A stretch of DNA of 64,000 bases from Chiloscyllium plagiosum (Eukaryota), in assembly GCF_004010195.1 (NCBI RefSeq), contig NC_057718.1:76337606-76401605 (forward strand). The letters are read 5' to 3'. A program made the translations under genes and the position numbers. Under the pieces are notes generated by a model. The model did not search any database, was not told the origin of the DNA, and saw nothing but the letters and a program-made list of their open reading frames with translations. Positions 4,475-51,098 of the stretch are shown piece by piece (within the stretch, counting starts at the first letter, position 1; every line of letters begins with the position of its first letter).

Positions 4475-4822
4475 GTTAAAAATCACACAACACCAGGCTA
4501 TCATCCAACAGGTTTAATTGGAAGCACTAGCTTTCGGAGCGCTGCTCCTTCATCAAGTGGTTGTGGAGTACACAATTGTAAGACACAGAATTTATAGCAA
4601 ATTACATCACATTTACAGTGTGATGTAACTGAAATTATACATTGAAAAATACCTTGATTGTTTGTTAAGTCTCTCATCTGTTAGAATGACCATGTTAGTT
4701 TCACTTTTATATGTAAATCACAAAACTTTTTTAAAAAGTTACATCCTCAGGTTAACTTTAACAATTGCACACAGGATTTTTAACTTTGTACATCCCAGTC
4801 CAACACCAGTCTCTCCAAATTA
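4475..4822 (-). mobile_element. PLE-derived non-autonomous element (family B) with inverted terminal tail and mutated hammerhead
   Basis: Starts GTTAAAAATC. Minus-strand TTGATGA-AGGAGCAGCGCTCC-GAAAGCTA at ~4528-4556. Inverted GATTTTTAAC-TTTGTACATCCCAGTCC tail. Flanking direct repeat TTTGATGGA at 4466-4474 and 4826-4834. Confidence 0.8.
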
Positions 4823-4944
4823 TAATTTGATGGAAAATGCATTAGTCACTTTCCTATTGGAAATCACATGTTCAAGCAAAACAAAATCACAGAAAATCTT
4901 TCAGGGACAAATGTTATCATAATTTCTATCAATTTTTTAAGATG

Positions 4945-5800
4945 CTGTGACCATGACAGACTCTCATCAAACTTGGGGATTAAATAGGCAATCTTGAATA
5001 CTTGAGCCCTTAAGTCTGAGTTAGGTCTTACTAGAGCTACCTTCAGTCTCCCTTCTCAGTTCAAGCTGTTTCAATTTAACTCCTTTTCTCATTTTCCTTC
5101 ATGGAATTCCCTTTCTTTCTCCATCCTCTGTGCTGTCTGTACTTCTTTTAACTAATTTTGTTTCCCTTTTTCTTTAGAATTTTTGTTCCAACCTTAGCTG
5201 TTCCAATTTTACAAGATGTGTTCTGCAATCCTTAGTTTCATCTCTAAGTACTTTGTTGCCTTGCAATTTCTTTTTCCTGACTTTTGGGTAGAACACAATC
5301 TCTAAGTGCCTAGATAGCCCTTTTAATTCTTCCAAGGAAAATGTTTTTCGTATTTTGTCATTTTTTTCCCTGCATTAAGCAGCATTAATGGCAAGTGTGG
5401 ACACCTTAATACCTTTAATATTAGATTCAAGAAAATTGTGTTGCAGTCTCTCTATTTGTTAAACCAATGTTTGAAGGAACAATTTATTTTCCTCACGAGC
5501 ATTTACTTCTTTGCCAATAAGAAAAATGCTGGAGTCAAAGCCTCAAAATTTATTAGTCCAGGTGGAGAGGAGAAATTAACTCCCCTCTAAATCCCACCAA
5601 ATGTTTTTATTTCTTTTTAGCATGCAGCTTTCATGCTTCAGTTAGAATGTAATTAACTAAATCAAAGGAAGGAGCCAATTTCAATGGTTTGCTACGTGAA
5701 GGAAAACTGAATTTTATTATTTTATTACCCATACTTAAGTATAACATAACATAACATAACTCAACATCAAAAACACAAACACAGGTAAAATGTTGCAGTG
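4945..5800 (-). mobile_element. Probable decayed LTR-retrotransposon (gag-like/LTR) remnant
   Basis: Minus strand is purine-rich and gives K/E-rich coiled-coil-like peptide fragments with stops; no intact ORF. Confidence 0.35.
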
Positions 5801-6719
5801 TTCCATCTAAGTTCCCTAGATTTGTCTCAATCTGTAGTCAGCTGAGCACTAAAGCCATTATACGTTATCATTTGTTCTCTTGAAAAATCTCAGCCCATGA
5901 AGTCTTGAATATTAAACTGAGACAAAAGTATTTGAAAATCAATATTCTGTGTAACAATACCTTTCAACAGAAAAACTCAGGGTGGAAACTTTGCGGTCCC
6001 TGAACTAGGCTATGGTTAGAAAGTCTGGGAAAACCACCTGAGATGTCAAGTGAACCTTTCTCGACAACCAGATGAAGTCGCATTTTCCAAGCAAGTCCTC
6101 TAAATAGAGACAATTCTTATGAGTGTAATGAGAAGCTTATTATTGTGGTTAACACTCATCACTCTCCATAGTACCTAATTTCCCCTTGTTAAAGAACTCT
6201 CCCATTCTCCATATACCAGATAAAAACTATTCCTTAACAGGAATGTCTGAACAAGTACCTGGCAATTCCAATTCACCTTGAGACCTTTATTTAGGTACTC
6301 ACATTAACTTGTCATGAATAATCCAGGAATACTGCCATATCTAACTGTTAGTCAAACTGGGTTGCACAATGGAAATCAAGCCTGCTATTCTGAGTCACTG
6401 CAAAAGTACCCCTCCATCTCCACTCTTAGGCTTGTGGGAATTTAATACAAGGAAGGTGGGCATGCTTCCAGACAGGATCCCTGAATATTTGAATATTTAA
6501 CTTTCTCCACTTCTTGTGAGGTAATTGTGAAACAAATTTATTCATTTTGCTTAAAACAAAATTGATATTGATTTAAGGCACCAGTAATTTTATTAAATCA
6601 TGCATTTGTTCACTGACAATGAACGACCATTGAATATCTGCTAATACTGACGGTTTATTTATTTTAAATGCGTGATTTTAATAGAAGGCAGATTATTTAT
6701 GGGAATTGATTCACCGATG

Positions 6720-6817
6720 GGATGGAGCGCACGCGCATTATATTGGTTTAGCAGAGGGGGGTCAGTTTGATGTGAAGGACGCATGCGCGCTTTGATGCTT
6801 GGCCGGAGCGGGTAAGT
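6720..6817 (+). promoter_or_regulatory. CpG-rich promoter / candidate first exon A
   Basis: NRF1-like GCGCACGCGC 6727-6736 and ACGCATGCGC 6779-6788, inverted CCAAT (ATTGG 6742-6746), splice donor G|GTAAGT at 6812; CpG-rich against a CpG-poor background. Confidence 0.65.
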
Positions 6818-7164
6818 GAAGGTTAGACTGATATTATAAAGTAATCGGGCATCAGTACAGAAATGAGGGTCAATTGGGATTCGTTGCCTATTTAACTATG
6901 GGGCGTATTTCATGACTGTAGGCATTTGTATTATCAGTAGGATGCACGAAGAGATTTGAGAAAAGGTTGGGTAACCGGAGACCGTTACAGTGAGTGGTTA
7001 TTTGTCCTGAGACGTTAGCTCTCTTTGTTTCCCCAGAAACGCTACCCCACCCGAGTATTTCCAGCATTTTTTTTCTGTTTCAGATTTCCATTATCTGCTT
7101 TTGTCAGGAAATATTAACGGGCGTTCTACCATCTTGTGTTAGGAAGATGGGTGTTTCTCTGCCT

Positions 7165-7352
7165 CATACTGCGCAGCCGTTCCGCCATCTTGAGATAGGC
7201 GGGTATGACTGTCATTACTGCGCATGCGTTCTGCTGTCTTGTGGGTTGGCAGTGAGGGTTTTTTTTGTCTCTGGGTCGTTGGAAACTGGATACAATGAGT
7301 AGGTTTTAGAGATTGTTCTGCCCGGAAATTAGGCATTCGTTCCGGGGTGAGT
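7165..7352 (+). promoter_or_regulatory. Second promoter cluster / candidate first exon B
   Basis: YY1 CCGCCATCTT 7182-7191, NRF1 TGCGCATGCG 7219-7228, ETS CCGGAAAT 7322-7329, splice donor G|GTGAGT at 7347. Confidence 0.65.
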
Positions 7353-8904: not shown

Positions 8905-9410
8905 GAATAAAACAAAGAACTGTGGATGCTGGAGGTTCTACAATAGAAACAAATTGCTAGCAAAACCCAGTCTGGCACTATCTTGTGAAGAGAAAGCAGA
9001 GTTAATGTTGAGTCCAGTGACTCTTTAGGAGTTCTGATGAAGAGTCACAGGACTCAAAATGTTAAGTCTGCTTTCTTCCACCAGGTTAAAAATCTCACAA
9101 CACCAGATTATAGTCCAACAGATTTATTTCAAAGCACTAGCTTTCAGAGCACTGATCTTTCTTCAGATGGTTGTGAAGCAGGACCATAAGGCATAGATTT
9201 TATAGCATTCTATATCTTATAGTCCTGCTTCACAACGACCTGAAGAAAAAGCGGTGCTCGGAAAGCTAGGAAACACTGTTAGACTAAAACCTGGTCTTGT
9301 GTGATTTTTAACTTTGTCCACCCCAGTCCAACATTGTCACCTTCACACTATTCTTCTACCAGATACTGCCGGACCTGTTGAGTTTCGCCAACAATTTCTG
9401 TTTTTGGTGC
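8905..9410. mobile_element. Palindromic PLE-derived hammerhead element (family C) interrupted by a family B palindrome at 9085-9350
   Basis: CTGATGA-AGAGTCACAGGACTC-AAAATGTT from 9034 (core mutated), mirrored on the left. Inner element is flanked by TTCTTC(C/T)ACCAG at 9073-9084 and 9351-9362. Confidence 0.75.
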
Positions 9411-9624
9411 AAAACTTATACTTGGTGTTGAAGTTTGAAAAACCTAGATGTTTGCCAGCTATACTGTGCTTACAATTCAGATTTTATTCTTTGTTCTCTT
9501 TCACCCTTCTTTCCCTTATTCCTGATGCACTTGTTTAGAGAGTGAGCATTCGTTTGGTTGATTTTCTTTGGATTGAAAATGTCTACCTGTTTTGCCCATC
9601 TTATACTTAGTATGTAGGTGGCAT

Positions 9625-9881
9625 GATGAGGTGCCAGTATTGGACTGGGGTGGACAAGGTCAAAATCACATACACCAGGTTATTTACTCTCTCCGTCTGA
9701 CACTTTTGATCACTTGCAGATTTACTCTCACTATATGATACTTTTCAGTGTCGACACTCCGCTCACATGATTTGTATGATCTTTTGATCTCTCTGCCTAT
9801 AAATTCTGTGCCTGTGTGCTTCTCTTCACTTCACTTGGCAAAGGTGCAGTGCTACGAAAGCATGTGATTTCAAATAAGCTT
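9625..9881. mobile_element. Older family B-like PLE-derived insertion
   Basis: Inverted tail TGGACTGGGGTGGACAAGGTCAAAATCAC on the left, decayed hammerhead on the right; TSD TATGTAGG(T/A)GGCAT at 9611-9624 and 9882-9895. Confidence 0.7.
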
Positions 9882-9972
9882 TATGTAGGAGGCATTTATT
9901 CTTAACTGTGAGTTTCTCTTTTCCCCTTCACTGCTGCTAATTTGTTTAATAACAAAGCTGAGTTTGGAGTTA

Positions 9973-10103
9973 GGTAAAAACAAGGGCTGCAGATGCTGGA
10001 AACCAGATTCTAGACTAGAGTGGTACTGGAAAAGCACAGCAGTTCAGGCAGCATCTGAGGAGCAGGAAAATCAACGTTTCGGACAAAAGCCCTTCATCAG
10101 GAA
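9973..10103 (-). mobile_element. Solo PLE terminal repeat (family A) with minimal hammerhead
   Basis: Minus strand TTC-CTGATGA-AGGGCTTTTGTCC-GAAACGTT-GA; perfect 13-bp TSD GAGTTTGGAGTTA at 9960-9972 and 10104-10116. Confidence 0.85.
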
Positions 10104-14414: not shown

Positions 14415-14735
14415 GGGGCGGCACGGTGGCACAGTGGTTAGCACTGCTGCTGCACAGCGCCAGAGACCTGGGTTCAATTCCCGCCTCAGGCGACTGACTG
14501 TGTGGAGTTTGCACGTTCTCCCCGTGTCTGCGTGGGTTTCCTCCCATCATCCAAAGATGTGCAGGGTCAGGTGAATTGGCCATACTAAATTGCCTGTAGT
14601 GTAAGGTAAGGGGTAAATGTAGGGGTATGGGTGGGTTTCGCTTCGGCGGGTCGGTGTGGACTTGTTGGGCCGAAGGGCCTGTTTCCACACTGTAATCTAA
14701 TCTAAATCTAAATTTAATCTAATCTAAATCTAATC
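14415..14735 (+). mobile_element. HE1-type SINE, near full length
   Basis: GGGGCGGCACGGTGGCACAGTGGTTAGCAC head, B-box-like GGTTCAATTCC, (AATCT)n tail. Confidence 0.9.
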
Positions 14736-14736
14736 C

Positions 14737-15148
14737 CAGCATGGCTAATCCACCTAACGTATTCATCTTTGGGAAAGTTTAGCATGGCCAATCTGCCTAA
14801 CCTGCACATCTTTGGACTGTGGGAGGAGTGGCTCAGTGATTAGCACTGCTGCCTCAAAGTGGCAGGGACTTGAGTTTCATTCCAGCCTTTCGTGACTGTT
14901 TGCGTGTTCTGAGTGTCTGCATGGGTTTTGTCGGAGTGCTCCAGTTTAATTTCAGTCCAAAGCTATACAGATTGGCCATGTTAAACTGCCCTATAATTTC
15001 CAGGAATGTGCAGGTTTGGTGGGTTAGCCATGATAAATGTGGGGTTATGAGGATAGTGTGGGGGACTGGGTATGAGTGAGCTCTCTTCAGAGGGTCAGTG
15101 CAGACCTGATAGGCTGAATGTCCTCTTTCTGTACTGTAGGGATTCTTA
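14737..15148. mobile_element. Further HE1-type SINE pieces (minus fragment ~14737-14825, older plus copy ~14828-15148)
   Basis: Body motifs shared with the 14415 copy in both orientations. Confidence 0.75.
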
Positions 15149-16374: not shown

Positions 16375-16612
16375 AAAAGGTAAAAACAATGACTGCAGAT
16401 GCTGGAAAGCAGAGTCTAGATTAGAGTGGTGCTGGAAAAGCACAGCAGTTAAGGCATCCTCCAGTCTTCTGGGACTACTCCTGTAGACAAAGAGGACATA
16501 AAAATCGGGCAAAAGCCCTTCAGGAATATAGCTTTTGCCTGAAACGTCAATTTTACTGCTCCTTGGATGCTGCCTGAACTGCTGTGCTTTTCCAGCACCA
16601 CTCTAATCTAGA
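16375..16612. mobile_element. Palindromic PLE-derived element (family A)
   Basis: Inverted arms TCTAGATTAGAGTGGTGCTGGAAAAGCACAGCAGTT / AACTGCTGTGCTTTTCCAGCACCACTCTAATCTAGA; GAAACGTC retained; perfect 16-bp TSD CTTCAAGCCCTAGACA at 16359-16374 and 16613-16628. Confidence 0.85.
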
Positions 16613-18352: not shown

Positions 18353-18574
18353 ATTTGGAGATGCCGGTATTAGACTGGGGTGTACAAAGTTAAAAATCAC
18401 ACCATACCAGGTTATAGTCCAACAGGTTTAATTGGAAGCACTAGCTTTCAGAGCGCTGCTCCTTCATCATGTGGTTGTGGACCACCTGATGAAGGAGCGG
18501 CGCTCCGAAAGCTAGTGTGCTTCCAATTAAACCTGTTGAACTATAACCTGGTGTGGTGTGATTTTTAACCTTTT
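18353..18574. mobile_element. Palindromic PLE-derived element (family B) with intact hammerhead core, inserted in an old CR1
   Basis: Arms ~18389-18475 and 18481-18569; CAC-CTGATGA-AGGAGCGGCGCTCC-GAAAGCTA-GTG at 18483-18517; TSD TTAGAGGTGATG at 18341-18352 and 18575-18586. Confidence 0.88.
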
Positions 18575-18724
18575 TTAGAGGTGATGTAGCATAGAATTAT
18601 TAGAATGATACTTGGTCTCTCAGGATTAAGCTAAACTAGACGTGTACTGCCTCAGTTTTAAAAGGTCTACAGGGTTATTGAATTAAATTTTGAATATATT
18701 ATGGGGAACAGATAAAAGGAACTT

Positions 18725-19558
18725 GTAAGAAGTTGCATCAAGACACTATTCAAAAGGGCCACAACACACTGCAGTACACCAGAACTGCAAAAAGAGGAAA
18801 AAGAACACCTATACAATGTATTCGCCAAAAACAGATACCCGCGCAATTTCATTAACAGATGCCTAAGGGAAAGACAACGGAACGAGGACGTGCCACAACC
18901 CAAAGGACTAGCCACACTACCATACATCAAGAGCATTTCCAAACTGACAGCCAGACTACTGCGACCACTAGGACTCATAACAGCACACAAACCAACTGCC
19001 ACTCTCAGACAACAACTCACCAGAACGAAGGACCCGATACCCAGCATGAGCAAAACCAATGTAGTGTACAAAATCCCATGCAAGGACTGCACAAAACACT
19101 ACAAAGGACAAACAGGAAGACCGCTAACGATCCACATCCATAAACACCAACTAACCACGAAACGACACAACCAGCTATCCTTAGTAGCCACACACACAGA
19201 TGACAAGCACCATGAATTCGACTGGGACAACACTGCTATTATAGGACAAGCCAAACAGAGAACAGCCAGGGAATTCCTAGAGGCATGGCACTCATCCACA
19301 GATTCAATCAATAAGCACATCGACCTGGACCCAATATACCAACCACTGCAGCGGACAGCTGGAACTGACAACCAGAAGTGGCAGATTCAAACCACTACAA
19401 ATGCCGGAAGAAAGATCACAGAAGCGCTTCACAGGAGGCTCCCAAGCACTGAGGATGTCACCTAGACAGGGGACGAAACGTCTGCAACACAAATTCCCAG
19501 CTCGGCGATCAGAACCACAACAACGAGCACCCGAGCTACAAATCTTCTCACAGACTTT
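18725..19558 (+). mobile_element. 5'-truncated Penelope-like retroelement (RT thumb/linker, GIY-YIG endonuclease and 3' terminal repeat)
   Basis: ORF 18890-19465: LPYIK..AHKP..NVVYKIPCKDCTKHYKGQTGR..H..REFLEAWH..SIN. Confidence 0.92.
19446..19485 (+). ncRNA. Minimal type I hammerhead ribozyme motif
   Basis: GCA-CTGAGGA-T-GTCACCT-AGAC-AGGGGAC-GAAACGTC-TGC: core boxes intact, 3-bp stem I, stem II with one mismatch, palindromic ACGU stem III. Confidence 0.85.
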
Positions 19559-21735: not shown

Positions 21736-21875
21736 ACGCTGTTGCTCCAGCCAATCTGTGCAGTCTGAGAGGAGCTGCAGACAGACACTCTTCCTGCAGA
21801 TGTAGGTGTTGGAACTGTGTAAACTATCCACAGTTTCCAATATCTCCCAGAGAAGTGTATCACCCCACAAACTGC
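21736..21875 (-). mobile_element. CR1 ORF1 zinc-finger/leucine-zipper fragment
   Basis: YICRKSVCLQLLSDCTDWLEQQ. Confidence 0.6.
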
Positions 21876-31193: not shown

Positions 31194-31485
31194 CAGAGAA
31201 AATGTTGCTTTGTTGGAAGTGCTGTTTTTCAAATGAGATGCTAAACCAGGACCCTATCTGCCTTCAGGTGAATGAAAAGAATCTTGGTGAGAGGGGTTGG
31301 GTGTGTTGTCACTGGTGTCTTGGTAAGTTAATCTCCCTCAACCAACATCACTAAAGTGGCCTTGCTATGTACAATTGCTGCACTGTCTCCTATGTTGGGA
31401 CAGTGACTATATTTCAGAAGTATTTCATTAATGTCTTGGGATTACCTGAAGTTATAAAAAGTACAATGTAAACACGTTCTTTCAT
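31194..31485 (+). mobile_element. Deu-domain (SacSINE1/AmnSINE-like) SINE 3' part; 5' head at ~30185-30276 separated by the CR1
   Basis: TTCAAATGAGATGCTAAACC..TCTGCCTTCAGGTGAATG..CCCTCAACCAACATCACTAAA motifs; GAAAATGT on both sides of the CR1. Confidence 0.6.
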
Positions 31486-31679
31486 TTTATATTTCAGTGT
31501 CTTGTATATCATCTAATCGATAAACTATCTTCACTGCCTAATAACTAGTCAGGTGACAGCATAACTGGAACTATTAGGTTGTTTCCCCCAGTGTACATTG
31601 TAATGGTTCTACAAATGAGCCTGGAAGTCTGTCTCTCCTGTGTTACTGAAGGAGCACTCTAATTAGGCAAGCTAAACTC

Positions 31680-31858
31680 CAGTTTCCTCCCACAGTCCAA
31701 AAATGTGCAGGTTAGGTGAATTGGCCATGCTAAATTGCCCATAGTGTTAGGTGAAGGGGTAAATGTATGGGAATGGGTCTGGGTGGGTTGCTCTTCGGAG
31801 GGTCGGTGTGGACTTGTTGGGCCGAAGGGCCTGTTTCCACATAGTAAGTAATCTAACT
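31680..31858 (+). mobile_element. HE1-type SINE, 5'-truncated
   Basis: Closely similar to the 3' half of the 54139 copy. Confidence 0.88.
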
Positions 31859-34939: not shown

Positions 34940-36166
34940 TATAATGTCATCATACCCCAAGAGTCTAAGCACATGTTGCTTGCATCTGAGAGAAATGGCA
35001 CAGAATATAGGAGCAGGGCATATAGAGAACATAGAGGAAGTCTTGTTGCAACTTTATAGAGCATTGGTTGGGCCACAGATAGAAGACTGCATGCAGTTCT
35101 GGTCATCACACTATCACAACAATTTGAATGCATTGGAGAGGGTGCAGTGGAGATTCACCATGATGTTGCCTGGGATAGAAATTTTCCATTACAAGGAGAA
35201 CTGGAAAGGCTGAGCTATTTTTCCTTGAGCAGAGAAGACTGTGGAGGGGGGAAGCAGGGACCGGTATCTCATTGAGATATTTCTAAGCTCAACCCATATG
35301 GCTTCATTTGAAGAGTCTTCAAAGATATCTTCCCTCATTTCTGTAGTGACGATGTCCTTTATAAATAATGCAATGCCCCACCTCTCTTATATCACTCCAC
35401 TATCACGTCTGAAAAGTCTTCACTCTGGAATGTTGAGCTGCCAGCCCTGTCCTTCCTTTAACAGTCTTTCCTTTAAATGATTTGGATGTGAGCATAAGAG
35501 GTATTAGTCAATTTGGAAATGACACCAAAATTGGAGGTGTAGTGGACAGCGAAGAAGGTTACCTCAGATTACAACAGGATCTTGATCAGCTGGGCCAATG
35601 GGCAAGTGGCACATGGAGTTTAATTCAGATAAATGCAAGATGCTGTATTTTGGGAAAGCAAATCTTCAACACTTAATTGTGAGGTCCTCGGTAGTGTTGC
35701 TGAACAAAGACACCTTGGACTGCAGATTCATAGCTCCTTGCAAGTGGAGTCACAGGTAGATAGGATAGTGAAGAAGGTGTTTGGTATGCTTTTCTTTATT
35801 GGTCAGCGTACTGAGTACAGGAGTTGGGAGGTCATGTTGCGGCTGCATGACATTGGTTAGACCACTGTTGGAATATTGCTTGTAACCCTGGTCTCCTTCC
35901 TATCGGAAAGATGTTGTGAAACTTGAAAGAGTTCAGAAAAGATTTACAAGGGTGTTGGCAGGGTTGGAGGATTTGAGCTACAGGGGGAGGCTGAACAGGC
36001 TGGGGTTGTTTTCCCTGGAGCGTCAGAGGCTGAGGGGTGACCTTCTAGAGGTTTACAAAATCATGAGGGGCATGGATAGGGGGACAAGATTGGGTTGGGA
36101 TATCTGGTCGGCATGGACGGATTGAACCAAAGGGTCTGTTTCCATGCTGTACATCTCTATGACTCT
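34940..36166 (+). mobile_element. Cluster of CR1 fragments (old plus 34940-35260, minus endonuclease piece 35260-35475, younger plus 3' part 35476-36166)
   Basis: CMQFWS..LERVQ; GGVVDSEEGYLRLQQDLDQL; CR1 terminal tail. Confidence 0.85.
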
Positions 36167-38079
36167 ATGAACAGGTCTCAGCGGTTGCAACAATATTATA
36201 TTCCCATGCGCTGATCAGTGCTCTAAGTGCCATCTGCCTTCTCAGACAGGTTCCCTGTCTTAGATACAATTTAGCTTTCTGGTCCTCCCATGTGCCTTGT
36301 CCTAGCAGTCCTTTTATATCTGATTTCACCTTGCTTCTGACTTTACATCTATTCAGGGAACTGGAAGTGAGATTTGCAGGATGCAAGTTCATAAATAAAT
36401 TGATTGCCAGTATCGTTAAAACAAAAACACCTGAACAAATCTCAGACAAACACAGACTCCTGGCAAGCATCCAGACGGAGGTCCAAACCCCAAACGAGTC
36501 AATCACAACTAACGACTTGCACGACTCTGAGGCAGAGAGTGTCCAGGAAAATCCCAACGATCAGAAACCGCGCCAAAGTGCCAGCCGAAAAACACCGGCA
36601 TCGATCCCTAAGCACAGGGACCCCTTTACTTGCCTTCAACACACTTCATCCACCTGGACACCCCACGCTGGCCTATTACCCGCCCTCGATCTCTTCATTT
36701 CCAACTGCCGCCGAGACATTTACCACTTCAAACTGTCTACCCCCCTCCCTCACTTCGACCTCTCACCCTCGTAACGCGCAGCCCTCCACTCCCTCTGCTC
36801 CAATCCCAACCTCACCATCAAACCAGCGGTTAAAGGGGGTATAGTAGTAGTTTGGCGCACTGACGTCTACACCGCTGAAGTCAGATGCCAACTTGAAGAC
36901 ACCTCTTCCTACCGCCCCCTCGACCATGACCCCACGCCCCCATCACCAAACCACCATCTCCCAGACCATACAGACACTCATCACCTCAGGAGATTTCCCA
37001 CCCACAGCTTCCAACCTTGTTGTCCAGGAACCTCACACCGCCCGATTCTACCTCCTTCCCAAGATCCACAAGTTTGACCACCTCAGCTGACCCATTGTTT
37101 CAGCCTGCTCCTGCCCCACTGAACGCATCTCCACCTACCTCAACACTGTCCTATCCTCCATAGTCCAGGAACTCCCTACATACGTTCGAGACACCACCCA
37201 CACCCTCCGGCCCCAATGCCTCATCTTCACCATGGACATCCAGTCCCTCTCCACCTCCACCCGCCATGACCAGGGCCTCCAAGCCCTCCATTTCTTCCTC
37301 TCCCAACATCCCCGACAGTACCCTTCCACAGACACTCTCATTTGGCTGAACTGGTCCTCACCCTGAACAATTTCTCCTTCGAATCCTCCCACTTCCTCCA
37401 GACCAAAGGGGTAGCTATGGGCCCCAGCTATGCCTGTCTCTTTCTTGATACGTGGAACACTCTATCTTCTGTAGTTACACCGGCACCACTCCCCACCTCT
37501 TCCACCGCTACATTGATGACTGCATCGGTGCCATCTTGTGCTCCCGCATGGAGGTTGAGCAGTTCACCAACTTCAACATATTCCACCCTGATCTTAAATT
37601 CACCTGGACCATCTCTGATACCTCCCTCCCCTTCCTGGACCTTTCCATCTCCATTAATGACGACCGACTTGACACTGCCATTTATTACAAACCCACCGAC
37701 TCCCACAGCTACCTGGATTACACTTCTTTCCACTCTATCACCTGCAAAATTGCCATCCCATATTCCCAATTTCTCCGCCTCCACCGTATCTGCTCCCAGG
37801 AGGACCAATTCCACCACAGAACACACCAGCTGGCCTCCTTCTTTAGACACTGCAATTTCCCTTCCCATATGGTTGAAGATGCCCTCCAACGCTTCTCATC
37901 CACATTCCGCACCTCCGCCCTCAAACCCCACCCCTCCAACCGTAACAAAGACAGAACCCCCCTGGTCCTCACCTTCCAACCTACCAACCTTCGCATTAAC
38001 TGCATCATCTGCCGACATTTCCGCCACCTCCAAACGGACTCCACCACCAGGGATATATTTCCCTCCCCACCCTTTTCTG

Positions 38080-38447
38080 NNNNNNNNNNNNNNNNNNNNN
38101 NNNNNNNNNNNNNNNNNNNNNNNNNNNNNNNNNNNNNNNNNNNNNNNNNNNNNNNNNNNNNNNNNNNNNNNNNNNNNNNNNNNNNNNNNNNNNNNNNNNN
38201 NNNNNNNNNNNNNNNNNNNNNNNNNNNNNNNNNNNNNNNNNNNNNNNNNNNNNNNNNNNNNNNNNNNNNNNNNNNNNNNNNNNNNNNNNNNNNNNNNNNN
38301 NNNNNNNNNNNNNNNNNNNNNNNNNNNNNNNNNNNNNNNNNNNNNNNNNNNNNNNNNNNNNNNNNNNNNNNNNNNNNNNNNNNNNNNNNNNNNNNNNNNN
38401 NNNNNNNNNNNNNNNNNNNNNNNNNNNNNNNNNNNNNNNNNNNNNNN
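38080..38447. other. Assembly gap
   Basis: Run of N. Confidence 1.
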
Positions 38448-38571
38448 TTCCACCCTCCCCTCTGACCTGTCACCTCCATCCCCACCCCCATTCTCCTATT
38501 GTACTCTTTGCTACCTTCTCCGCCCTCCCCCCGCCTCCAACTTCTCTCCACCTTGGAGGCTCCCTGCCTCC

Positions 38572-38606
38572 ATTCCTGATGAAGGATTTTGCCCGAAACG
38601 TCAATT
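38572..38606 (+). ncRNA. Minimal hammerhead motif in PLE terminal repeat
   Basis: CTGATGA (38576-38582)-AGGATTTTGCCC-GAAACGTC (38595-38602); stems weakened relative to other family A copies. Confidence 0.75.
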
Positions 38607-38819
38607 TTCCTGCTCTGTGGTGCTGCCTGACCTGCTGTGCTTTTCCAGCACCACTCTGATCTAAACTACATCTATTCAGTGCCTCATCTACTTGCCATAT
38701 TAGTTTAAAATCTCCCCAACATCCTGAGCAAACTTCCCAGTGAGGATATTGGACTCATTCTGGCTCAGGTGCAACCCATCCAAATTGTACAGGTCTGACC
38801 TACCCCTGAAACTATCTTT

Positions 38820-41277: not shown

Positions 41278-42850
41278 ATCCAAAAATCTAAAGCGCTCCT
41301 TCCTGAACCATTCTTTTAACCACGCGTTCATCTGACCTAACTTCTTTTTCCAATACTCAGTGGCAGGTGATACCTGAAGTAATCTGGAAATAACTTTAGT
41401 AGTCCTCCTCTGTAACCAACTACCTCTCTAAATTCTTTTTGCAGGACCTCATTTATGTTTTTGCTCATGTCAATGGTATTGAAATGTACAACTGTTTGTT
41501 ATTCACCCTCTCCCTGCAGAATACCATGCAGCTGCTTTGAGATATCCCTGACCCTGGCACCAGGGAGGCAGCATACCATACAAGAATCTCATTTGCTGTC
41601 ACCGAACTGCCTGTCCGTTCCCCTGAGAATCAAGTCCCCTATCAGTGAAGCTGTCCCACTCTTTTTCCTCCCCTGCAATGCAGCAGAGCCAACCATGACA
41701 CCCCAAACTTGGCTGTTGCTATTTTCCCCTGAGAGACCATCCACCTCTCCAACAGTATCCAACATGGTATATTTACAATGATATCAGGCGTTTGTGAAAT
41801 CCCATCTGGAATATTGTGTCTAGTTTTAATGTCCTTCTTGAGGAAGGATGTTCTGGCACTGCAAGCAGTTCAGAGGAGGTGCACAAGTTTGATTCCAGAA
41901 ATGAGAGGGCTGTTGTTCAAGAAACGGGTGAGTAGCTTGGGCTTGTACTCGCTGGAGTTCAGAAGAATAAGGGGAGATCTGATTGAAGTACATTAAGTGC
42001 TAAAGCGGATAAGATGAATGTTGAACAGATGCTCCCCCTTGTGGAAGAGTCCAGAACCACATGTTATCAATATAAAGTGAGAGAAGGTAGGTTCAAAACT
42101 GAAATAAAGAAAAACTATTTCTCTCTGACAGTTGTGAATCTCTAAATACAGAGTGCAGTGGCGGTAGAATCAATCAACAGATCCAAGAAAAAAAGTCATT
42201 GAATCCCTACAGTGTGGAAACAGGCCTTTTAGCCCAACAAGTCCATTCCAACCCTCTGAAGAGCATCCCACCCAGACCCATTTCCCTAACTAATGCACCT
42301 AACCTACACATCCCTGAACACTATTAGTATGGTCAATTCACCTAACCTGTACATCTTTGGATTGTGAGAGGAAACCCACGCAGACACAGGGAGAATGTGC
42401 AAACTCCACACAGACAGTCGCCCAAGGCTGGAATTGAACCCAGGCCCCTGACGTTGTGAAGCAGTAGTACTAACCACTGAGCCACCGGCCCACCCCCCCA
42501 GCTATATTTCTGATGAAAAGTGAGATGGGGAGCAGCAGGAAAATAGAAATGAGACTATGATATGTTCAGCCATGATCATGTTAAATGACAGAGTGGACTT
42601 GAAGGGCTGAATTACTTACTCCTGCTCCTATTTCCTATGTGCTGTGCATGACATCCTTAGCATCATGGATGTTCCGTAGTGAGTCCATCCACAGTTCCAG
42701 CTACTCTATGTGGTCAATCAGGAGCTCTGGCTGAGCATGCACTTACTGCAAAAATGGTCACCATGGATATTGGAAGTGTCCCTGATTTCCGACCTATTGC
42801 AGAAGGAGCATTCCAAGGGGCTGAGTTCTCCTACCATTTCAAACCTTATC
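41278..42850 (-). mobile_element. CR1 ORF1 pieces (41278-41778, 42640-42850, plus 38670-38812) split by later insertions
   Basis: Minus strand: N-terminal Cys motif (CSFC..CSKC) and esterase-like region (..VCCLPGARVRDI..). Confidence 0.65.
41790..42640 (+). mobile_element. Old CR1 3' end containing a minus-strand HE1-type SINE at 42197-42490
   Basis: LRKDVLALQAVQRR..LGLYSLEFRRIRGDLIEV; SINE head/body in reverse. Confidence 0.85.
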
Positions 42851-43109: not shown

Positions 43110-43216
43110 TGTAATAAGGTCAGCAAGCTGGACCTCATACAATATTGGTTCCCTAATTGGGGCTGTTAATCTGGTCCAACCAGGAACCCTGGCTGACAGA
43201 TTAAAAAATGAGTATC
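43110..43216 (+). mobile_element. Possible LTR 5' portion (target of the Tx1-like insertion)
   Basis: Starts TGTAATA, has CCAAT-like and TATA-like motifs; family identity recalled, not verified. Confidence 0.35.
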
Positions 43217-43826
43217 CCCAGGAGTTGTTCAGGGAGAGGTGGGCGCCGCAGGGAGTGGAGTGCATCATTTCTCCCTCCAACTCTATTTTGATTTAGTCCC
43301 TACCCACCCCTTCACTGTTTTGATCACACAGCACTGCCCTTTGATGCGAAGGGCAGTGTTTGTCACTGGCCACCCGGGTGTTTTCCTATCTTCCTGGTGG
43401 TGGAAATTGAATAAAAGATTGGTGCACTTTGTGTCTTTCACTGCGTCTCACACCTGCGCGCACACACCATGGGTGCTGGGGATAAAATAAGCACTACCGC
43501 ACTTAGGTGGTAGTGTGGGGGTTAAAGGAAAAAAAAATAAAAAAAATAAAAAATGAGTATCCCCTGGAGTTGTTCAGGGAGAGGTGGGCGCCGCAGGAAG
43601 TGGAGTGCATCATTTCTCCCTCCAACTCTATTTTGATTTAGTCCCTACCCTCCCCCTCACTGTTTTTGATCACACAGCACTGCCCTTTGAGAAGGGCAGT
43701 GTTTGTCACTGGCCACTCGGGTGTTTTCCTATCTTCCTGGTGGTGGAATTTGAATAAAGATTCGTGCACCTTGTGTCTCTCACTGTGTCTCACACCTGCG
43801 CACACACACCATGGGTGCTGGGGATA
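43217..43826 (+). mobile_element. Two tandem 3' ends of an L1/Tx1-like non-LTR element (345-bp period)
   Basis: ELFRERWAPQGVECIISPSNSILI* (43222-43296), 3' UTR hairpins, AATAAA, A-rich tail; second copy runs into the gap. Confidence 0.65.
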
Positions 43827-44326
43827 NNNNNNNNNNNNNNNNNNNNNNNNNNNNNNNNNNNNNNNNNNNNNNNNNNNNNNNNNNNNNNNNNNNNNNNNNN
43901 NNNNNNNNNNNNNNNNNNNNNNNNNNNNNNNNNNNNNNNNNNNNNNNNNNNNNNNNNNNNNNNNNNNNNNNNNNNNNNNNNNNNNNNNNNNNNNNNNNNN
44001 NNNNNNNNNNNNNNNNNNNNNNNNNNNNNNNNNNNNNNNNNNNNNNNNNNNNNNNNNNNNNNNNNNNNNNNNNNNNNNNNNNNNNNNNNNNNNNNNNNNN
44101 NNNNNNNNNNNNNNNNNNNNNNNNNNNNNNNNNNNNNNNNNNNNNNNNNNNNNNNNNNNNNNNNNNNNNNNNNNNNNNNNNNNNNNNNNNNNNNNNNNNN
44201 NNNNNNNNNNNNNNNNNNNNNNNNNNNNNNNNNNNNNNNNNNNNNNNNNNNNNNNNNNNNNNNNNNNNNNNNNNNNNNNNNNNNNNNNNNNNNNNNNNNN
44301 NNNNNNNNNNNNNNNNNNNNNNNNNN
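43827..44326. other. Assembly gap
   Basis: Run of 500 N. Confidence 1.
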
Positions 44327-44641
44327 CATATCCTAATGGAAGTGGACACCCTTGCCAGGCCAACAGAGCTTGGGGGACACTATTTGAGCGAAAGCATTTG
44401 CACAGCCTTACTCAGGACATATCCTGAACAGATGGACTCTAGTCTAGCCCACAGCCAAACCCCAAAACAAAGCCAAGCCTTGACCAGTTACAATTTTCTG
44501 TAGGATTCTGGCCAGCCAGCCATTGTAGTTGCTGCTGGTAAGCGGACTTGAAACAGCTGGAGTCCTACTAGACCAAAATTGAGTAAGATACCTCAGTCCG
44601 ATATCCATGGGATATTCATACCCTGGAAAGTCCACCTTTGA

Positions 44642-45041
44642 GTGCGAGCTGCAGCGGAGGTAAGACGAAGCCGGAACACTGCAACTAAGGTAAGGCAGTT
44701 TTTAAAAAAGAAATTACTTACCAGTAGCGGACAGTGGTGTTTTCCCTTTCACAGAAGGAGCGGGAGCAGCAGGGAAAGTGACGAGGACCAGAGGGGCAGC
44801 CGGGAAGGAAAGCAGTGAGTATAAATACTCACCCTTTGACGCCAACGGCCATTTTGTGTGCGAGCAGCAGCGGAGGCAAGACGAAGCCGGAACACTGCAG
44901 CTAAGGTAAGGCAGTTTTTAAAAAAAATATTACTTACCGGTAGCGGACAGCGGTGTTTTCCCTTTCACAGAAGGAGCGGGAGCAGCAGGGAAAGTGACGA
45001 GGACCAGAGGGGCAGCCGGGAAGGAAAGCAGTGAGTATAAA
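44642..45041 (+). repeat. ~216-bp CpG-containing tandem duplication (almost two units), possibly a LINE 5' UTR repeat
   Basis: Units start GTGCGAGC at 44642 and 44858 and are nearly identical. Confidence 0.85.
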
Positions 45042-45077
45042 AGCGCGCAGGAGAGGAACCCAAGGCACTACTGAGGT

Positions 45078-45602
45078 AGAACTCTAACAAATACAATCCC
45101 AGGATCCTCAGCCGTTCATCATATGTTAGGCCTACCATTCCGGGGATCATCTGTGTGAATCTCTGCTGGACACGCTCCAATGCCAGTATGTCCTTCCTGA
45201 GGTGTGGGGCCCAAAACTGGACACTGTATTGTAAATGGCGCCTAACCAGAGCTTTATAAAGTCTTAGTAGCACCTCACTGCTTTTACATTCCAACCCTCT
45301 TGAAATAAATGACAACATTACATTTGCTTTCTTAACCACGGACTTAACCTGCAAGTCAACTTTTAGAGAATCCTGGACTAGCTCTCCCAGACCACTTTGT
45401 ACTTTGGATTAATGAATTTTCTCACCGTTTATAAAATAGTCCTTGCCTGTGTTCTTTTTTCCAAAGTGCAAGACCTCACATTTGCTCACATTAAATTTCA
45501 TCAATTTCTTGGACTATTCTCCTAAACTGTCTAAATCTTTCTGTAGCCTCCCCACCTGCCTGTCCGCCTAACTTCGTATCATCGGTAAACGTTGCCAGAA
45601 TG
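45078..45602 (-). mobile_element. CR1 RT C-terminal fragment
   Basis: LYKALVRRHLQYSVQFWAPHLRKDILALERVQ. Confidence 0.9.
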
Positions 45603-45621
45603 CCCATCTTCTGAACTCGTA

Positions 45622-45850
45622 CTGGACTCTACCTCCATGCCAGACAGGACTCTATATGCCTCCCCCCACCCTACAGGACTCTAACCCCAACCGAGACAGG
45701 ACTCTACCTACCTACTCTCCCCCTCCCCCAACACCCTGGACAGGACTCTAATCCCTTCCCCTCGCCCGATAGGACTCTACCACCATCGCACCCACACCTC
45801 CACCAGATGTAACTCTCTCTCTCCAACACCCACCCCAAACAGGACTCTCT
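45622..45850 (+). repeat. Array of GACAGGACTCTA motifs separated by variable C-rich spacers
   Basis: Motif or variant at 45622, 45643, 45672, 45695, 45739, 45768, 45838. Confidence 0.75.
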
Positions 45851-45944
45851 TTACCCCATTTCTCCCATAGCAACAGGATGTCTCAGGTCCAATTCTCCTT
45901 CTCCGACATTTCCTCTCTCTGTTCCACCAGGAGATTCTGTCATT

Positions 45945-48900
45945 CCAGTAATTATTCTCTCAACCTCACAGTAATTATTGACTTACTCTGACAAAAATTA
46001 TTCTCTCACTTACTCTGATAGCAATTATTCTCTTGCTTCTTCTGACGGGAGGTAAATAATCAATTGCTTACTCGGACAGTAATTATTTTCTCACTCACTC
46101 TAACAGTAATTACTGCCTCACTCTGCAAGCAATTATTCTCTCACTCTAACAGGATGTAATTATTCTCTCCCTTATTCAGACAGGAGGTAATTATTCTCAA
46201 TAATAATTATTCCCAACAATAATTATTGTCCCACTCTGACAGGAGGTAATTATCCTCTCATTCTAACAGGAGATAACTATTCTCTCACTCTGATGGGAAC
46301 TATTCTCTCACTCTAACGGGAGGTAATTATTCTCTCACTCTGATAGGTCATAATTATTCTCTCACTCTGACAGGAGGCAATTATTCTCTCACTCTTACGG
46401 GAAGCAATTTTTCTCTCACTCTGACAGGATGTAATTATTTTCTCACTCTAATAGGAGGTAATTATTCTCTCGCTGTGAACAAAGAAGAACAAAGAACAAA
46501 CAAAATTTACAGCCCAGGACCAGGAGCTTCGGCCCTCCAAGCCTGAGCCGATCCAAATCCACTGTCTAAACCTGTCGCCCAATTCCTAAGCATCTGTAAC
46601 CCTCTGCTCCCCACCTACTCATGCATCTGTCCATACGCATCTTAAATGAATCTACTGTGCCTGCCTCTACCACCTCTGCTGGCAACGCATTCCAGACATC
46701 CTCCACCTCCTGTGTAAAGTGCTTGCCGCGTGTATCCCCCTTAAACATTTCACCTCTCACCTTGAAAGCGTGACCTCTCATTATTGAATCCTTCACCCTG
46801 GGAAAAAGCTTATCTCTATCTAGCCTGTCTATACCCTTCATGATTTTGTAGACAACAATCAGGTCCCCCATCAATCTCCTTTTTGCTAATGAAAACAATC
46901 CCAACCTACTCAACCTCTCTTCATAGCTAGCACCTTCCATACCAGGCAATATCCTCATAAACCTTCTCTGCACCCTCTCCAAAGCTTACACATCCTTTTG
47001 GTAATGTGGCGACCAGAACTGTACACAGTATTCTAAATGCGGCCGAAAAAATGTCTTATACAATTTTAACATGACATGCCAGCTCTTATACTCAATGCCC
47101 CGCCCAATGAAGGCAAGCATACTATATGCCTTCTGACCACTCTATCCACCTGTGCAGCACCCTTCTGGGTACAATGGACCTGCGCTCCCAGATCTCTCTG
47201 TTCATCAACTTTTCCCAAGGTTCTTCCGTTCATTGTATAATTTGCTCGAGAATTAGACTTGCCTGTATTTTTTGACAGTCCCTTATGCTTTTTGCTACTC
47301 CACCAATCTTCGTGTCATCCACAAACTTGCTGATCATATCAACATTGCCCTCTTCCAGATCATTTATGTATATCATAAATAATAGTGGCCCCAACACTGA
47401 TCCATGTGGAACACCACTGGTCACCTTTCTCCATTTCGAGAAACTCCCTTCAACTACTACTCTCTGTCTCCTGTTGCTCAACCAGTCCTTTATCCATCTA
47501 GCAAGAACACCCTGCACACCATGTGACTTCACTTTCTCCATTAGTTTACCATGGGGAACCTTATCAAACGCCTTACTAAAGTCCATGTGTATGACATCAA
47601 CAACCCTTCCTTCATCTATCAACTTGGTTACTTCCTCAAAGACCTCTATTAAGTTGGCAAGGCACGATCTCACCCGCACAAAACTGTTGCTTATCGCTGA
47701 TATGTCCATTCTTTTCTAAATATAAATAGATCCAATCCCTCAGTACCTTCTCCAGGAACTTTCCCACCACTGATGTCAGGCTCACTGGCCTGTAGTTACC
47801 AGGAATATCCCAAAGACACTTCTTGTACAGGGGGACAACTTGAGCAACCTTCCAGCCTGCCGGCACCTCACCTGTGTTTAATGATGCCACAAAGATATCT
47901 GTTTGGCCCCCAGCTAATTCCTCTCTCGCCTCCCTCAGCAACCTGGCAGGTAATTAATCTCACACTGTGACGGGAGGTAATTATTCTCTCACCCTGACAG
48001 GAGGTAATTATTCTCTCACCATGACAGGAGGTAATTATTCTCTCACAGACAGGAGGTAATTATTCTCATACTGTGACGGGAAGTAATTAATCTCTCACCC
48101 TGACAGGAGGTTACTATTCTCTCACCCTGGCAGGAGATAATTATTCTCCCACTCTGACAGAAGGTAATTATTCTCTCACTCTGACAGGAGGTAATTATTC
48201 TCTCACTATGACAGGAAGTAATTATTCTCTCAATGTGTCAGGAGGTAATTATTCTCACATTCTGACAGGAAGTAATTATTCTCTCACTCTGACGGGAGGT
48301 AATTATTCTCTCGCTCAGACAGGAGGCAATTATTCTCTCACTATGACAGGAAGTAATTATTCTCTCACTGTATCAGGAGGTAATTATTCTCTCATTATGA
48401 CAGGAAGTCATTATTCTTTCACTCTGACAGGAGGTAATTATTCTCTATGACAGGAAGTAATTATCCTCTCACTGTGTCAGGAGGTAATTATTGTCTCACT
48501 CTGACGGGAAGTAATTATTCTCCCACTCTGATAGGAGGTAATTATTCTCTCACTCTGACAGGATGTAATTATTCTCTCACCCTGACGGGAGGTAATTATT
48601 CTCTCACCCTTACAGGAAATAATTACTTTTCCACCCTGACGGGAGATAATTATTCTCTCACTGACAGGAGATAATTATTCTCTCACCCTGACAGGAGATA
48701 ATTATTCTCTCATTGACAGGAGGTAATTATTCTCTCACCCTGACAGGAGATAATTATTCTCTCAGTGACAGGAGGTAATTATTCTCTCAACCTGACAGGA
48801 GGTAATTACTCTCTCACTTTGACAGGAGATAATTATTCTCTCACTGACGGGAGGTAATTATTCTCTCACCCTGACAGGAGGGAATTATTCTCTCGCTCTG

Positions 48901-49210
48901 ACAGGAGGTAATTTTTCTCTCACCCTGACAGGAGGTAATTAATCTCTCATTGACGGGAGGTAATTCTTCTCTCACTCTGACAAGAGGTAATTATTCTCTC
49001 GCACTGACAGGAGGTAATTATTCTCTCACCCTGACGGGAGGTAATTAATCTCTCACTGACGGGAGGAAATTATTCTCTCACTCTGACAGGAGGTAATTAT
49101 TCTCCACCTCTGACAGAAGGTAATTATTCTCTCACCCTGATGGGAGGTAATTATTCTCTCGCACTGATGGGAGGTAATTATTCTCTCACTCTGACAGGAG
49201 ATAATTATTC
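45945..49210 (+). repeat. 27-bp satellite (CTCTGACAGGAGGTAATTATTCTCTCA) with 25-bp variants, split by a CR1
   Basis: Contiguous tandem units at 45945-46476 (degenerate) and 47948-49210 (more homogeneous). Confidence 0.95.
46477..47947 (-). mobile_element. CR1 LINE, 5'-truncated, RT plus 3' tail
   Basis: [43 protein letters not shown]; (TTCTTTG)n tail. Confidence 0.95.
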
Positions 49211-49383
49211 ATTCCCTGCCAGTAGCAGTGGTGGACTCTCCCTCTTTATGGGCATTTAAACGGGCATTGGGTAGGCATATGGAGGATAGTGGGCTAGTGG
49301 AGGTTAGGTGGGCTTGGATCGGCGCAACATCGAGGGCCAAAGGGCCTGTACTGCGCTGTATTTTTCTATGTTCTATGTTCTAT
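49211..49383 (+). mobile_element. CR1 3' end
   Basis: AAAGGGCCTGTACTGCGCTGTA-(TTCTATG)n tail. Confidence 0.85.
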
Positions 49384-49639
49384 CTGATTAGGACCACTTA
49401 AACTGATTAGTGATACCCAAATCAGAACCAATCAAAATAAATGTCTAGTTAAATAGTCATCCAGTTCTAATGGCGGTCGATACTGGCTATGCCATAGCGG
49501 TGATTGCAGAATTTTAATAAAATTCGCTCTGGATCCCAGCCTTTACGTTTGTGCAAGATCTTGTCCAGGACAGAAAACATATACCGGTGATCCTTTGCTG
49601 ATTAAATTTATAACTTTGATTCCAGTCTCTTATGAGAAG

Positions 49640-50315
49640 CAACTGGTTCAGTACCAGTGACTGGTTGCAAGAGATTCACCTAGATTGACTCAACATTTTT
49701 CAATTAGAAAATGGCTGCCTGAATGAAGTCCTAATTAAATACCTGGAAGTCTTCCAGGAAAGTCTAGGGACTATCAAAGGAACCAAAGGCCACCTTGTAG
49801 TTTGCCTAGGAAGCAATTCCATGATTCCACAAGTCCTACCCAGTGCCATTTACTTTACAGACAAAAGTAGAGACAGAAATGAGAAGCCTGGAAAATGAAG
49901 GAATCAAACCAGTCCAGTTTGCAAAATGAGCAACACTGGTCGTACCGATTTTGAATCCCAATGGGTCAGTCTACCTTTGTGGAGATTTTAGAGAAACGGG
50001 TAAGCTACTTTTTGCAGCTGGATAAATACCCAATCCCTCACATGGAGAACTTAATGGCAGTGCTAGCAGGGGAACTGTACTTCACTAACCTGGACATGTG
50101 CCTTGCATACTTACAATTGCACTTGGGCAAAGATTCCCAGAAACATGCTATAATTAATACCCATAAGGGCTTGTACCAATAAACGAGACTGCTATGTAGG
50201 TTATTGTCAGCCTGTGCAATTTTCCTTTGGATGACAATGAACATTTTGCAAGTTGTACCTCAGGTCACCATTTATCGAGATGACATTCTAATAACAGGAA
50301 AACAAATAAGAAGCA
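49640..50315 (+). mobile_element. Decayed Gypsy-type pol (RT) fragment
   Basis: PVPF..LENEGI..VVPI..LCGDF; YPIP..LD..AYLQL..INTHKGLYQ; downstream IYRDDILITG. Confidence 0.85.
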
Positions 50316-50319
50316 ATTA

Positions 50320-50475
50320 TAAGGCATCATGGCAACCCACAAACCCATCAACACACTAAAACAGCAGCTAATTAACTTGAAAGACCCTATACAGACAACA
50401 AGCAAAACTCATGTCATGTAAAAAATACCGTGCAAGGATTGTAACAAACACTACATTGGACAAACAGGCAGAAAT
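50320..50475 (+). mobile_element. Penelope GIY-YIG fragment
   Basis: THKPINTLKQQL..KDP..KIPCKDCNKHYIGQTGR, homologous to ORF 18890. Confidence 0.85.
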
Positions 50476-50869
50476 GCGCAGTTTAGTACTTATTGTTACT
50501 TTACCTACAAGAATAACTTATTTTCTTTATATGTTAATGTCCATCTATCCTTCAGTCTCCTCATGTGTTCAAATTCTACCCACACTGTGCTATTTATACT
50601 CAGTGAGTTGCAATTCCATGATATAGTTATACAGTTGCTTCAGGATCCTGAAGTCCTTGAAGAACAAAATGCTCTTTGTTCAACTCCTGGAGGAATTGCT
50701 GAAACTGGTACTGGGAAAAAAGGTGAGTCTAAATGTCCATGGGCCTGCGGGAGGCAGTTGCTGTAAGATTGAATTCCCAATGACTGATTTAAGAGAATTA
50801 TGTAACATTTATTGTAAGAAGGAAACTAAAAGGACAACATAAACTACTGCAGGACAAGTGTGCCTTTAA

Positions 50870-51098
50870 TTCTGGAGTAGAGTAGTGCTGGAAAAACACA
50901 GCAATTCAGGCAGCATCCAAGGAGTAGGAAAACCCTACGTTTCGGACAAAAGCCCTTCATCAGGACTCCTGATGAAGGGCTTTTGCTGGAAACATCGGAT
51001 TTTCCTGCTCCTCGGATGCTGCCTGAAATGCTGTGCTTTTCCAGCATCACTCTACTCCAGAATCTGGTTTCCAGCATCTGCAGTCATTGTTTTTACGT
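50870..51098. mobile_element. Palindromic PLE-derived element (family A) with back-to-back hammerhead cores
   Basis: Centre TCATCAGGA-C-TCCTGATGA at 50966; arms ~50869-50965 and 50967-51063; 14-bp TSD AAGTGTGCCTTTAA at 50856-50869 and 51099-51112. Confidence 0.9.

Follow-up and report, generated by a model that had tools for sequence, protein, structure and literature searches.

Penelope-like elements (PLEs) insert as inverted pseudo-LTRs (pLTRs) with a tail of 30-40 bp, according to the available text of PMC3846280, PMC8557442 and PMC2377424. For PAc (Poseidon, Anolis carolinensis), both target strands are nicked and extended in vitro, the tail is the interval between two internal start sites of the reverse transcriptase (RT), and hammerhead cleavage is dispensable (PMC11167929, available part). 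In its available results text, that paper takes up neither inverted copies nor the pairing of ends within single inserts. Opposite-strand pairs of minimal hammerheads 100-700 bp apart have already been noted in the available part of PMC4209133. In the available texts the tail usually stands at one end. The D. virilis tail, 34 bp long, forms the beginning of the ORF.

Twin priming of LINE-1 was reportedly described by Ostertag and Kazazian in 2001. LINE-1 twin-primed pieces are largely non-overlapping.

The window is the whole stretch of 64,000 nt of Chiloscyllium plagiosum that was analysed (NC_057718.1, positions 76,337,606 to 76,401,605). Its features are given below by position. TSD: target-site duplication. 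Unstranded: arms on opposite strands. Hammerheads are predicted by pattern scan.

4475..4822, unstranded: family B insert; short arm 4475-4774 (minus, about 300 nt of the element), which nhmmer aligns at E 4e-25 to the copy at 53.8-54.1 kb; long arm on the plus strand (4775-4822), consisting of 10 nt common to both arms and a 38-nt tail; TSD 4463-4474 / 4823-4834.
8906..9415, unstranded: family D palindrome (older, related to A), with the long arm at the left and the short arm at the right; the 9085-9350 insert interrupts it; a TSD was sought and not found.
9085..9350, unstranded: family B palindrome with the short arm at the left and, at the right, a long arm with 38 nt of tail; TSD 9073-9084 / 9351-9362.
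9625..9881, unstranded: family B insert of atypical form; its long arm (minus, 9625-9683) has a tail of 34 nt and does not overlap the sense arm at the right; TSD 14 nt, 1 mismatch.
9973..10103, minus: family A solo copy with a long end (36 nt tail), beginning shortly ahead of the hammerhead core; exact TSD of 13 nt.
16379..16612, unstranded: family A palindrome; the long arm, at the left, has a 36 nt tail and contains about 45 nt of unrelated sequence starting at 16463; the short arm is at the right; exact TSD of 16 nt.
18353..18574, unstranded: family B palindrome; the long arm, at the left, has its 36 nt tail at 18353-18388, and the short arm, at the right, ends at 18569; TSD 12 nt, exact.
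18703..19555, plus: family C, a third, Poseidon-like PLE, 5'-truncated; thumb and GIY-YIG region; hammerhead at 19449; candidate TSD 14 nt, 2 mismatches.
36357..38666, plus: family A copy; frameshifted PLE RT 36601-38078, hammerhead at 38576, short end at 38665; the endonuclease region coincides with an N gap (38080-38447); TSD 13 nt, exact.
50870..51098, unstranded: family A palindrome with the short arm at the left and, at the right, a long arm with 37 nt of tail, both beginning at the same base before the hammerhead core; spacer 1 nt; TSD 50856-50869 / 51099-51112.
50969..50996, plus: minimal hammerhead motif, family A; also at 38576, 10100 (minus) and 50963 (minus).
53828..54135, minus: family B copy with a long end (39 nt tail); the upstream end adjoins a SINE near 54140; a TSD was sought and not found.
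53889..53909, minus: poly(A) signal AATAAA (53904-53909) in the family B repeat, followed by a GU/U-rich stretch and then the short terminus.
53919..53947, minus: minimal hammerhead motif, family B; also at 18486, 9240 and 9166 (minus).

Judged by sequence features, the family A and B inserts are terminal repeats of PLEs with minimal hammerheads. Inverted pLTRs, a one-sided tail (34-39 nt) and TSDs (8 of 9 inserts) are found in both families. Family A encodes a PLE-type RT in a single ORF (frameshifted in the window copy), with 77-81% identity to P0001 (RVT_1 above cut-off) and 158 homologues; it appears Neptune-like by its RT relatives. A C-terminal GIY-YIG endonuclease (EN), which in such PLEs has two cysteines between its motifs, is seen in P0002 (identity to the query 80%) and in 57 of 120 homologues. 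The Neptune-type CX2-5CxxC linker between RT and EN is found in 51 of these 57, the closest shark ones included; the window copy is gapped at both places. This linker motif is also common to Nematis. Pfam gave nothing relevant on 5 + 1 window fragments. The first 244 nt of the family A copy (36357-36600) have no meaningful match among 120 homologues. Family B is assigned to the PLEs by its predicted hammerhead, tail, inverted arms and TSD; the window holds no RT of this family, and no family B copy there extends into coding sequence. Neither full-length nor tandem PLE copies occur in the window.

The predicted hammerheads of A and B have the core pattern and a paired helix II. They resemble the metazoan PLE hammerheads of PMC4209133 (helix II is long, helix III is not stably formed, and the cut lies at a palindromic 4-mer), in the available part of which no mention of sharks was found. 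Family A RNA would be cut after 50996 and family B RNA after 53919, that is, 91-101 nt upstream of the long end and 52-65 nt from the short end. Rfam gave no hammerhead match; its only matches are miRNA-like hairpins below the gathering score, obtained because the inserts are palindromic. Pattern-scan loci of family A elsewhere (2 metagenome, 5 viral) are all 7 chance matches of 21-24 nt; family B has 0 viral loci. A MITE or DNA transposon is ruled out by unequal arms, an RT-bearing member and variable TSD length, and an assembly artefact by identical ends in sequencing runs from three organisms.

The preliminary description had proposed two termini about 35 nt apart in both families, with short family B ends at 4475, 9085 and 18569. 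Its coordinates are correct within 2 nt, and the two classes of end take in all 14 motif-bearing arms, which end either 0-5 nt (6) or 34-39 nt (8) past the terminal motif, none ending at 6-33 nt. Family B: 0, 0 and 5 nt lie between motif and TSD at these short ends, and 38, 38, 34, 36 and 39 nt at the long ends 4822, 9350, 9625, 18353 and 53828 (the last taken to the end of similarity, without a TSD). Family A: 0, 1 and 1-2 nt at the short ends 16612, 38665 and 50871, and 36, 36 and 37 nt at the long ends 9973, 16379 and 51098. The count leaves out the right arm of 9625-9881, which lacks the motif and halts some 35 nt short of the short site; this arm does not conform to the rule of two fixed termini.

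In 8 of the 9 A/B inserts the flanking TSDs measure 12-16 nt and have 0-1 mismatch, longer than the 8-10 nt of the rotifer examples in the available texts. Scores of true left/right pairs are 10-16; of 56 mismatched pairs, 3 exceed 0, the best at 8. Where the far end was located by wide scan (two inserts), a 13-nt exact match occurs in 1 of 500 random trials.

Read ends were surveyed in three DNA runs, taking the best 6 loose-end rows per run (2221 further rows). Among these best rows, loose ends pile up at the long terminus 51096 in 1 of 3 runs (620 contigs) and at the long termini 53828 and 53834 in 3 of 3 (883-1757 contigs). Clip points just inside short termini are found at 51050 (2 of 3 runs) and 53883 (3 of 3), where the consensus dissolves into unrelated flank. 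Genome-wide loose ends, as best rows rather than a full histogram, fit two preferred ends. The opposite-strand joint 51050-51096 has the tail-to-tail geometry of neighbouring inserts and is excluded as pairing evidence, as are the joints at 50967, which fall on the reference edge; joints 53862/53863 may be short ends or clips. Predicted stem-loops at the termini give z of +0.6 to -1.0 against shuffles in 6 of 7 A/B arms and -2.2 in one; being no better than shuffles in those 6, terminal folding is dropped as evidence for a stem-loop of the kind that PAc has at its start site.

The inserts are probably 5'-truncated pLTRs of endonuclease-bearing PLEs, made from two internal RT starts with the cDNAs joined head to head. 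Step 1: the GIY-YIG endonuclease would nick both target strands 12-16 nt apart, the length of the TSDs seen here. Step 2: each 3'-OH would prime at one of two internal sites about 36 nt apart on uncleaved read-through RNA, the tail being the stretch between them. Step 3: the two cDNAs would run toward each other, stop independently (such stops are seen), often just upstream of the hammerhead, and presumably be joined head to head into an asymmetric palindrome. Step 4: retention of one cDNA would leave a solo long or solo short copy with a TSD; both are seen. Step 5: the pairing of one long with one short arm would most likely come from two RT subunits on one RNA, one per site, a step held only tentatively.

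That the end classes are RT start sites is demonstrated for PAc; we infer it for the shark families by analogy. The likeness lies in two ends 30-40 nt apart and tens of nt downstream of the hammerhead cut, in the use of both target strands, and in the frame-internal end, 111-118 nt in PAc versus 101-106 nt in family C (frame opening at ATG 19455, within hammerhead stem II). PAc is Poseidon-type, whereas family A is Neptune-like and no open frame runs through its tail; for the shark families the case is read from sequence. The available text of PMC11167929, with its tail between two RT starts, bears out the earlier proposals that both ends are priming footprints and that both target strands prime on staggered nicks. 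Together with the arm geometry of the window, where neither arm is always the other's copy, it also supports one reaction for palindrome, asymmetry and TSD.

The arms agree with the predicted pairing, within the window: the palindromes with canonical ends have one long and one short arm in 5 of 5 cases (p = 0.031 at equal odds; 6 of 6 with family D, p = 0.016, post hoc). One of seven two-armed inserts has a non-canonical second end (9625-9881). In 2 of the 5 palindromes it is the short arm that extends further upstream (4475, by about 290 nt, and 9085), in 2 the long arm (16379, 18353), and in one the arms are equal; 4 of the 5 have one stretch of 50-100 nt of the RNA copied in each arm. Since either arm can extend further upstream, a fixed fold-back is excluded and two separate cDNAs are supported. 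Same-insert arm pairs have the top counts of shared private sites (2 in A, 3 in B) or the top identity (94%, 94%) among 15 + 15 pairs, the counts being small. This is expected if they share one template; early gene conversion could be another source. Pairing might be obligate, at somewhat less than even chances: a PLE dimer would sit on one nascent, not-yet-polyadenylated RNA, the distal cDNA displacing or stalling at the proximal one. By the same tentative reading, each subunit would start at a different site, on opposite target strands.

A random choice of start sites by two independent RNPs, with the 5/5 pairing due to chance, is unlikely but remains the strongest competitor, and it touches step 5 only, being compatible with steps 1-4. 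The sample is small, tails are described as 'optional' or 'often' at one end in the available literature, and PAc start sites are alike on both strands (PMC11167929, available part), so that one-of-each pairing is not thereby predicted; the p values above and the resemblance of same-insert arms to one template speak against it.

It is quite improbable that a single priming site is used and that an endonuclease cut at the tail boundary leaves or removes the tail when the intermediate is resolved, although the available text of PMC8557442 calls this most likely. One-of-each pairing would arise naturally, and the D. virilis endonuclease requires the tail for DNA recognition (as cited in the available part of PMC11167929). 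However, PAc cDNAs begin at both tail boundaries in vitro (same source), and all 6 short ends lie 0-5 nt from intact TSDs, which is simplest if they were primed there.

The preliminary description had derived the long arm from the true RNA end, with the short arm primed internally, which is very improbable. In its favour, the long ends fall sharply at 34-39 nt, a faint product seen with PAc had been primed at the template 3' end, and anole RNA-seq read ends coincide with the start sites, though these may be transcribed genomic copies (PMC11167929, available part). Against this, an A-tail is present at 0 of 8 long arms, the hammerhead cut lies 91-101 nt from the long end, many copies in the loose-end consensus run about 4 nt past the reference's long end, and both PAc sites are internal (same source), the D. 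virilis tail being the ORF start. Among the read ends listed, neither starts nor ends of molecules accumulate at the hammerhead cut. Moreover, poly(A) is added to family B RNAs at 53889 and 53892 (poly-T loose ends, 618 and 480 reads, in RNA run X21, chosen by species label), 22-25 nt before the short terminus and upstream of both termini. Host transcripts that use the element's signal, rather than element RNA, may be the source of these reads. Because a working poly(A) signal lies inside the repeat, the template must escape 3' processing.

Self-priming fold-back, in which a cDNA copies itself back and halts about 36 nt short of its own start, has been proposed for PLE palindromic junctions (PMC3846280, available part) and suits the shared private variants and the 1-nt spacer and symmetric centre at 50966, but is scarcely credible as the general route, since a copied short arm cannot exceed its template (those of 4475-4822 and 9085 do) and a tailless arm cannot template a long one; it could be the source of individual inserts such as 50870-51098.

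The comparison to LINE-1 made earlier stands for two cDNAs primed at the target and joined, with an inverted 5' piece in one TSD (PMC10760644, available part), most closely in 4475-4822 (10 nt overlap) and 9625-9881. It fails in that the first cDNA is not primed at poly(A), the second site is fixed rather than variable, and the arms usually overlap by 50-100 nt.

The priming idea is thus largely right but already published, as are the tail and the finding that it arises from two internal RT starts; what is added is mainly an extension of this scheme to two or three shark families, one of them Neptune-like. The inserts differ from published PLE insertions in being reduced to stumps of 130-350 nt. 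Such short TSD-flanked palindromes are very numerous in shark genomes (70,000-84,000 contigs placed on the two-armed stretch per DNA run), and the coupling question is answerable by counting. If pairing is obligate, inverted pLTRs, one-sided tail and TSD would all belong to one coupled reaction, conserved between Poseidon and Neptune-like elements and countable from hundreds of thousands of shark copies. With their poly(A) signal, family B stumps may terminate host transcripts in either direction.

Copies of two terminal repeats of Penelope-like elements (PLEs), family A (Neptune-like) and family B, were enumerated in the window by blastn and nhmmer, which gave four family A and five family B inserts. 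Arm ends are given as the distance between the terminal motif and the target-site duplication (TSD). Family A arms end either 0, 1 and 1-2 nt (short) or 36, 36 and 37 nt (long) past the motif; family B arms end either 0, 0 and 5 nt or 34, 36, 38, 38 and 39 nt past it, the last value being measured to the end of similarity in an arm without TSD. The preliminary description, whose coordinates are all correct to within 2 nt on re-check, claimed two fixed termini; 14 of 14 motif-bearing arms fall into these two classes. This count excludes the right arm of the atypical family B insert (9625-9881), which ends ~35 nt before the short site. TSDs of 12-16 nt surround eight of the nine inserts (control: mismatched boundary pairs score above 0 in 3 of 56 cases, maximum 8; true pairs, 10-16). 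Solo copies with a TSD show either end (9973, long; 38666, short).

Features delimited in the window:
8906-9415: older palindrome with a hammerhead at its centre, from a family akin to A; its right arm holds an inserted family B palindrome.
18703-19555: fragment of a third PLE family, Poseidon-like; ATG in hammerhead stem II; end 101-106 nt into that frame.
53889-53909, minus strand: used poly(A) signal in the family B terminal repeat, marked by poly-T loose ends.

Palindromes with canonical ends combine one long and one short arm in five of five cases (post hoc p = 0.031, taking equal odds). The palindrome at 8906-9415, which has no detectable TSD, is a sixth such case by alignment. No long/long or short/short insert is found among the seven two-armed inserts in the window. 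In a search of openly accessible papers, none was found that gives per-insert pairing counts or links the inverted copy to the two start sites.

The in vitro assay proposed in the preliminary description has already been carried out on a relative, PAc, the Poseidon-type PLE of Anolis carolinensis. According to the available part of that report (PMC11167929), purified PAc makes nicks in both strands and extends each strand; reverse transcription starts internally, at two sites 111-118 nt into the ORF region, and the tail is the interval between the two starts, with which genomic ends agree. The fragment at 18703-19555 shares its hammerhead/ATG layout with PAc. The two-end observation is real, well above chance and accounted for by published work, apart from obligate pairing.

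The long arm was also proposed to be primed at the true RNA end; this is not supported, an A-tail being present in none of the eight long arms. Inferred hammerhead cuts lie 65 and 101 nt (family A) and 52 and 91 nt (family B) upstream of the two ends. RNA structure was sought at the ends of both families and found unsupported. In a poly(A) RNA run, 618 reads have a poly-T loose end at 53889 and 480 reads one at 53892, with AATAAA 12-15 nt before and a GU/U-rich stretch after. The short end is 22-25 nt, and the long end 61-64 nt, downstream of these positions; an RNA cut there could template neither end, so the template must read through. The RNAs ending there may be host transcripts. Palindromic family B copies would present this signal to host transcripts in both directions. 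In the atypical insert, the long arm (9625-9683) starts within ~3 nt of the homologue of this cleavage site, a single case that may be coincidence.

Fold-back is rejected as sole origin, since neither arm can in every insert be copied from the other; two template-copying events are therefore required. In two inserts the short arm extends further upstream: the one at 9085 and the one at 4475, where the extra ~290 nt are genuine element sequence (E 4e-25 against the copy at 54 kb). The long arm does so at 16379 and 18353, and neither does at 50870. In 15 + 15 pairwise comparisons of arms, those of the same insert either share more private sites than any other pair (2 and 3, against 0-1) or are the most similar (94% identity), which weakly supports copying from one template.

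Under the proposed model, nicks staggered by 12-16 nt, a spacing shown by the TSDs, would open both target strands. Each nicked end would prime at an internal RNA site, as PAc does and the shark families probably do. The two cDNAs, whose stops are seen to be independent, would then join head to head. One subunit per start site on a single RNA is a fair possibility, if rather less likely than not. The model resembles LINE-1 twin priming in operation, as described in the available part of PMC10760644, but differs from it in that the poly(A) end is absent and the PLE arms mostly overlap.

The region 50967-54100, which holds one long arm each of A and B, was compared with three DNA contig sets from three organisms and the poly(A) RNA run. 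Among the six best loose ends per run, 53828 and 53834 mark the family B long end in three of three DNA runs, and 51096 the family A long end in one of three and, repeatedly, in the joint table. Among the same six, clip points at 51050 and 53883, just inside the short ends, result from private changes of the reference (the consensus there gives the short motif, then unrelated flank), and the remaining loose ends are two reference-specific mismatches. Past the long ends the consensus keeps ~4 more shared letters, hence a long end spread across a few nt. The positions in these best six, as distinct from a whole histogram, fit two preferred termini. Over the A tail, RNA depth comes to roughly 44% of its value in the arm. 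The family A tail ends in a pyrimidine run (51090-51098), after which the consensus of loose ends in one data set goes on with CTAG, a splice-acceptor-like arrangement.

The family A copy at 36357-38666 encodes a frameshifted RT with 77-81% identity to a protein attributed to Chiloscyllium punctatum. Its nuclease region falls inside an N gap; its relatives carry RVT_1 and GIY-YIG, with a CX2-5CxxC linker in 51 of the 57 having the nuclease core, a mark of Neptune and Nematis in the available text of PMC8557442. Both families have a minimal hammerhead, of a kind reported in PLE terminal repeats (PMC4209133, available part). No family B ORF is found in the window.

Some proteins homologous to the family A RT bear host-gene isoform names. 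Within the TSD of the RT-bearing copy, 244 nt (36357-36600) match none of 120 homologous proteins and no other window DNA, and are possibly captured sequence or an untranslated part of the element. In a family A palindrome, ~45 nt of unrelated sequence (16463-16507, long arm) replace ~22 nt. A decayed hammerhead-like fragment resembling family A lies at 63161-63184 (minus strand). Dispersed repeats, which we take to be like shark SINE/LINE 3' fragments, lie at 14415-14900, 31677-31854, 42201-42496 and 54140-54435, and at 21191-21741, 30274-31195, 35504-36167 and 57965-58682. A long array of ~27-nt repeats spans 43600-49200 (N gap, 43827-44326), and a 421-aa ORF with 84-nt repeats (25148-26413) appears by eye to be a C2H2 zinc-finger array.
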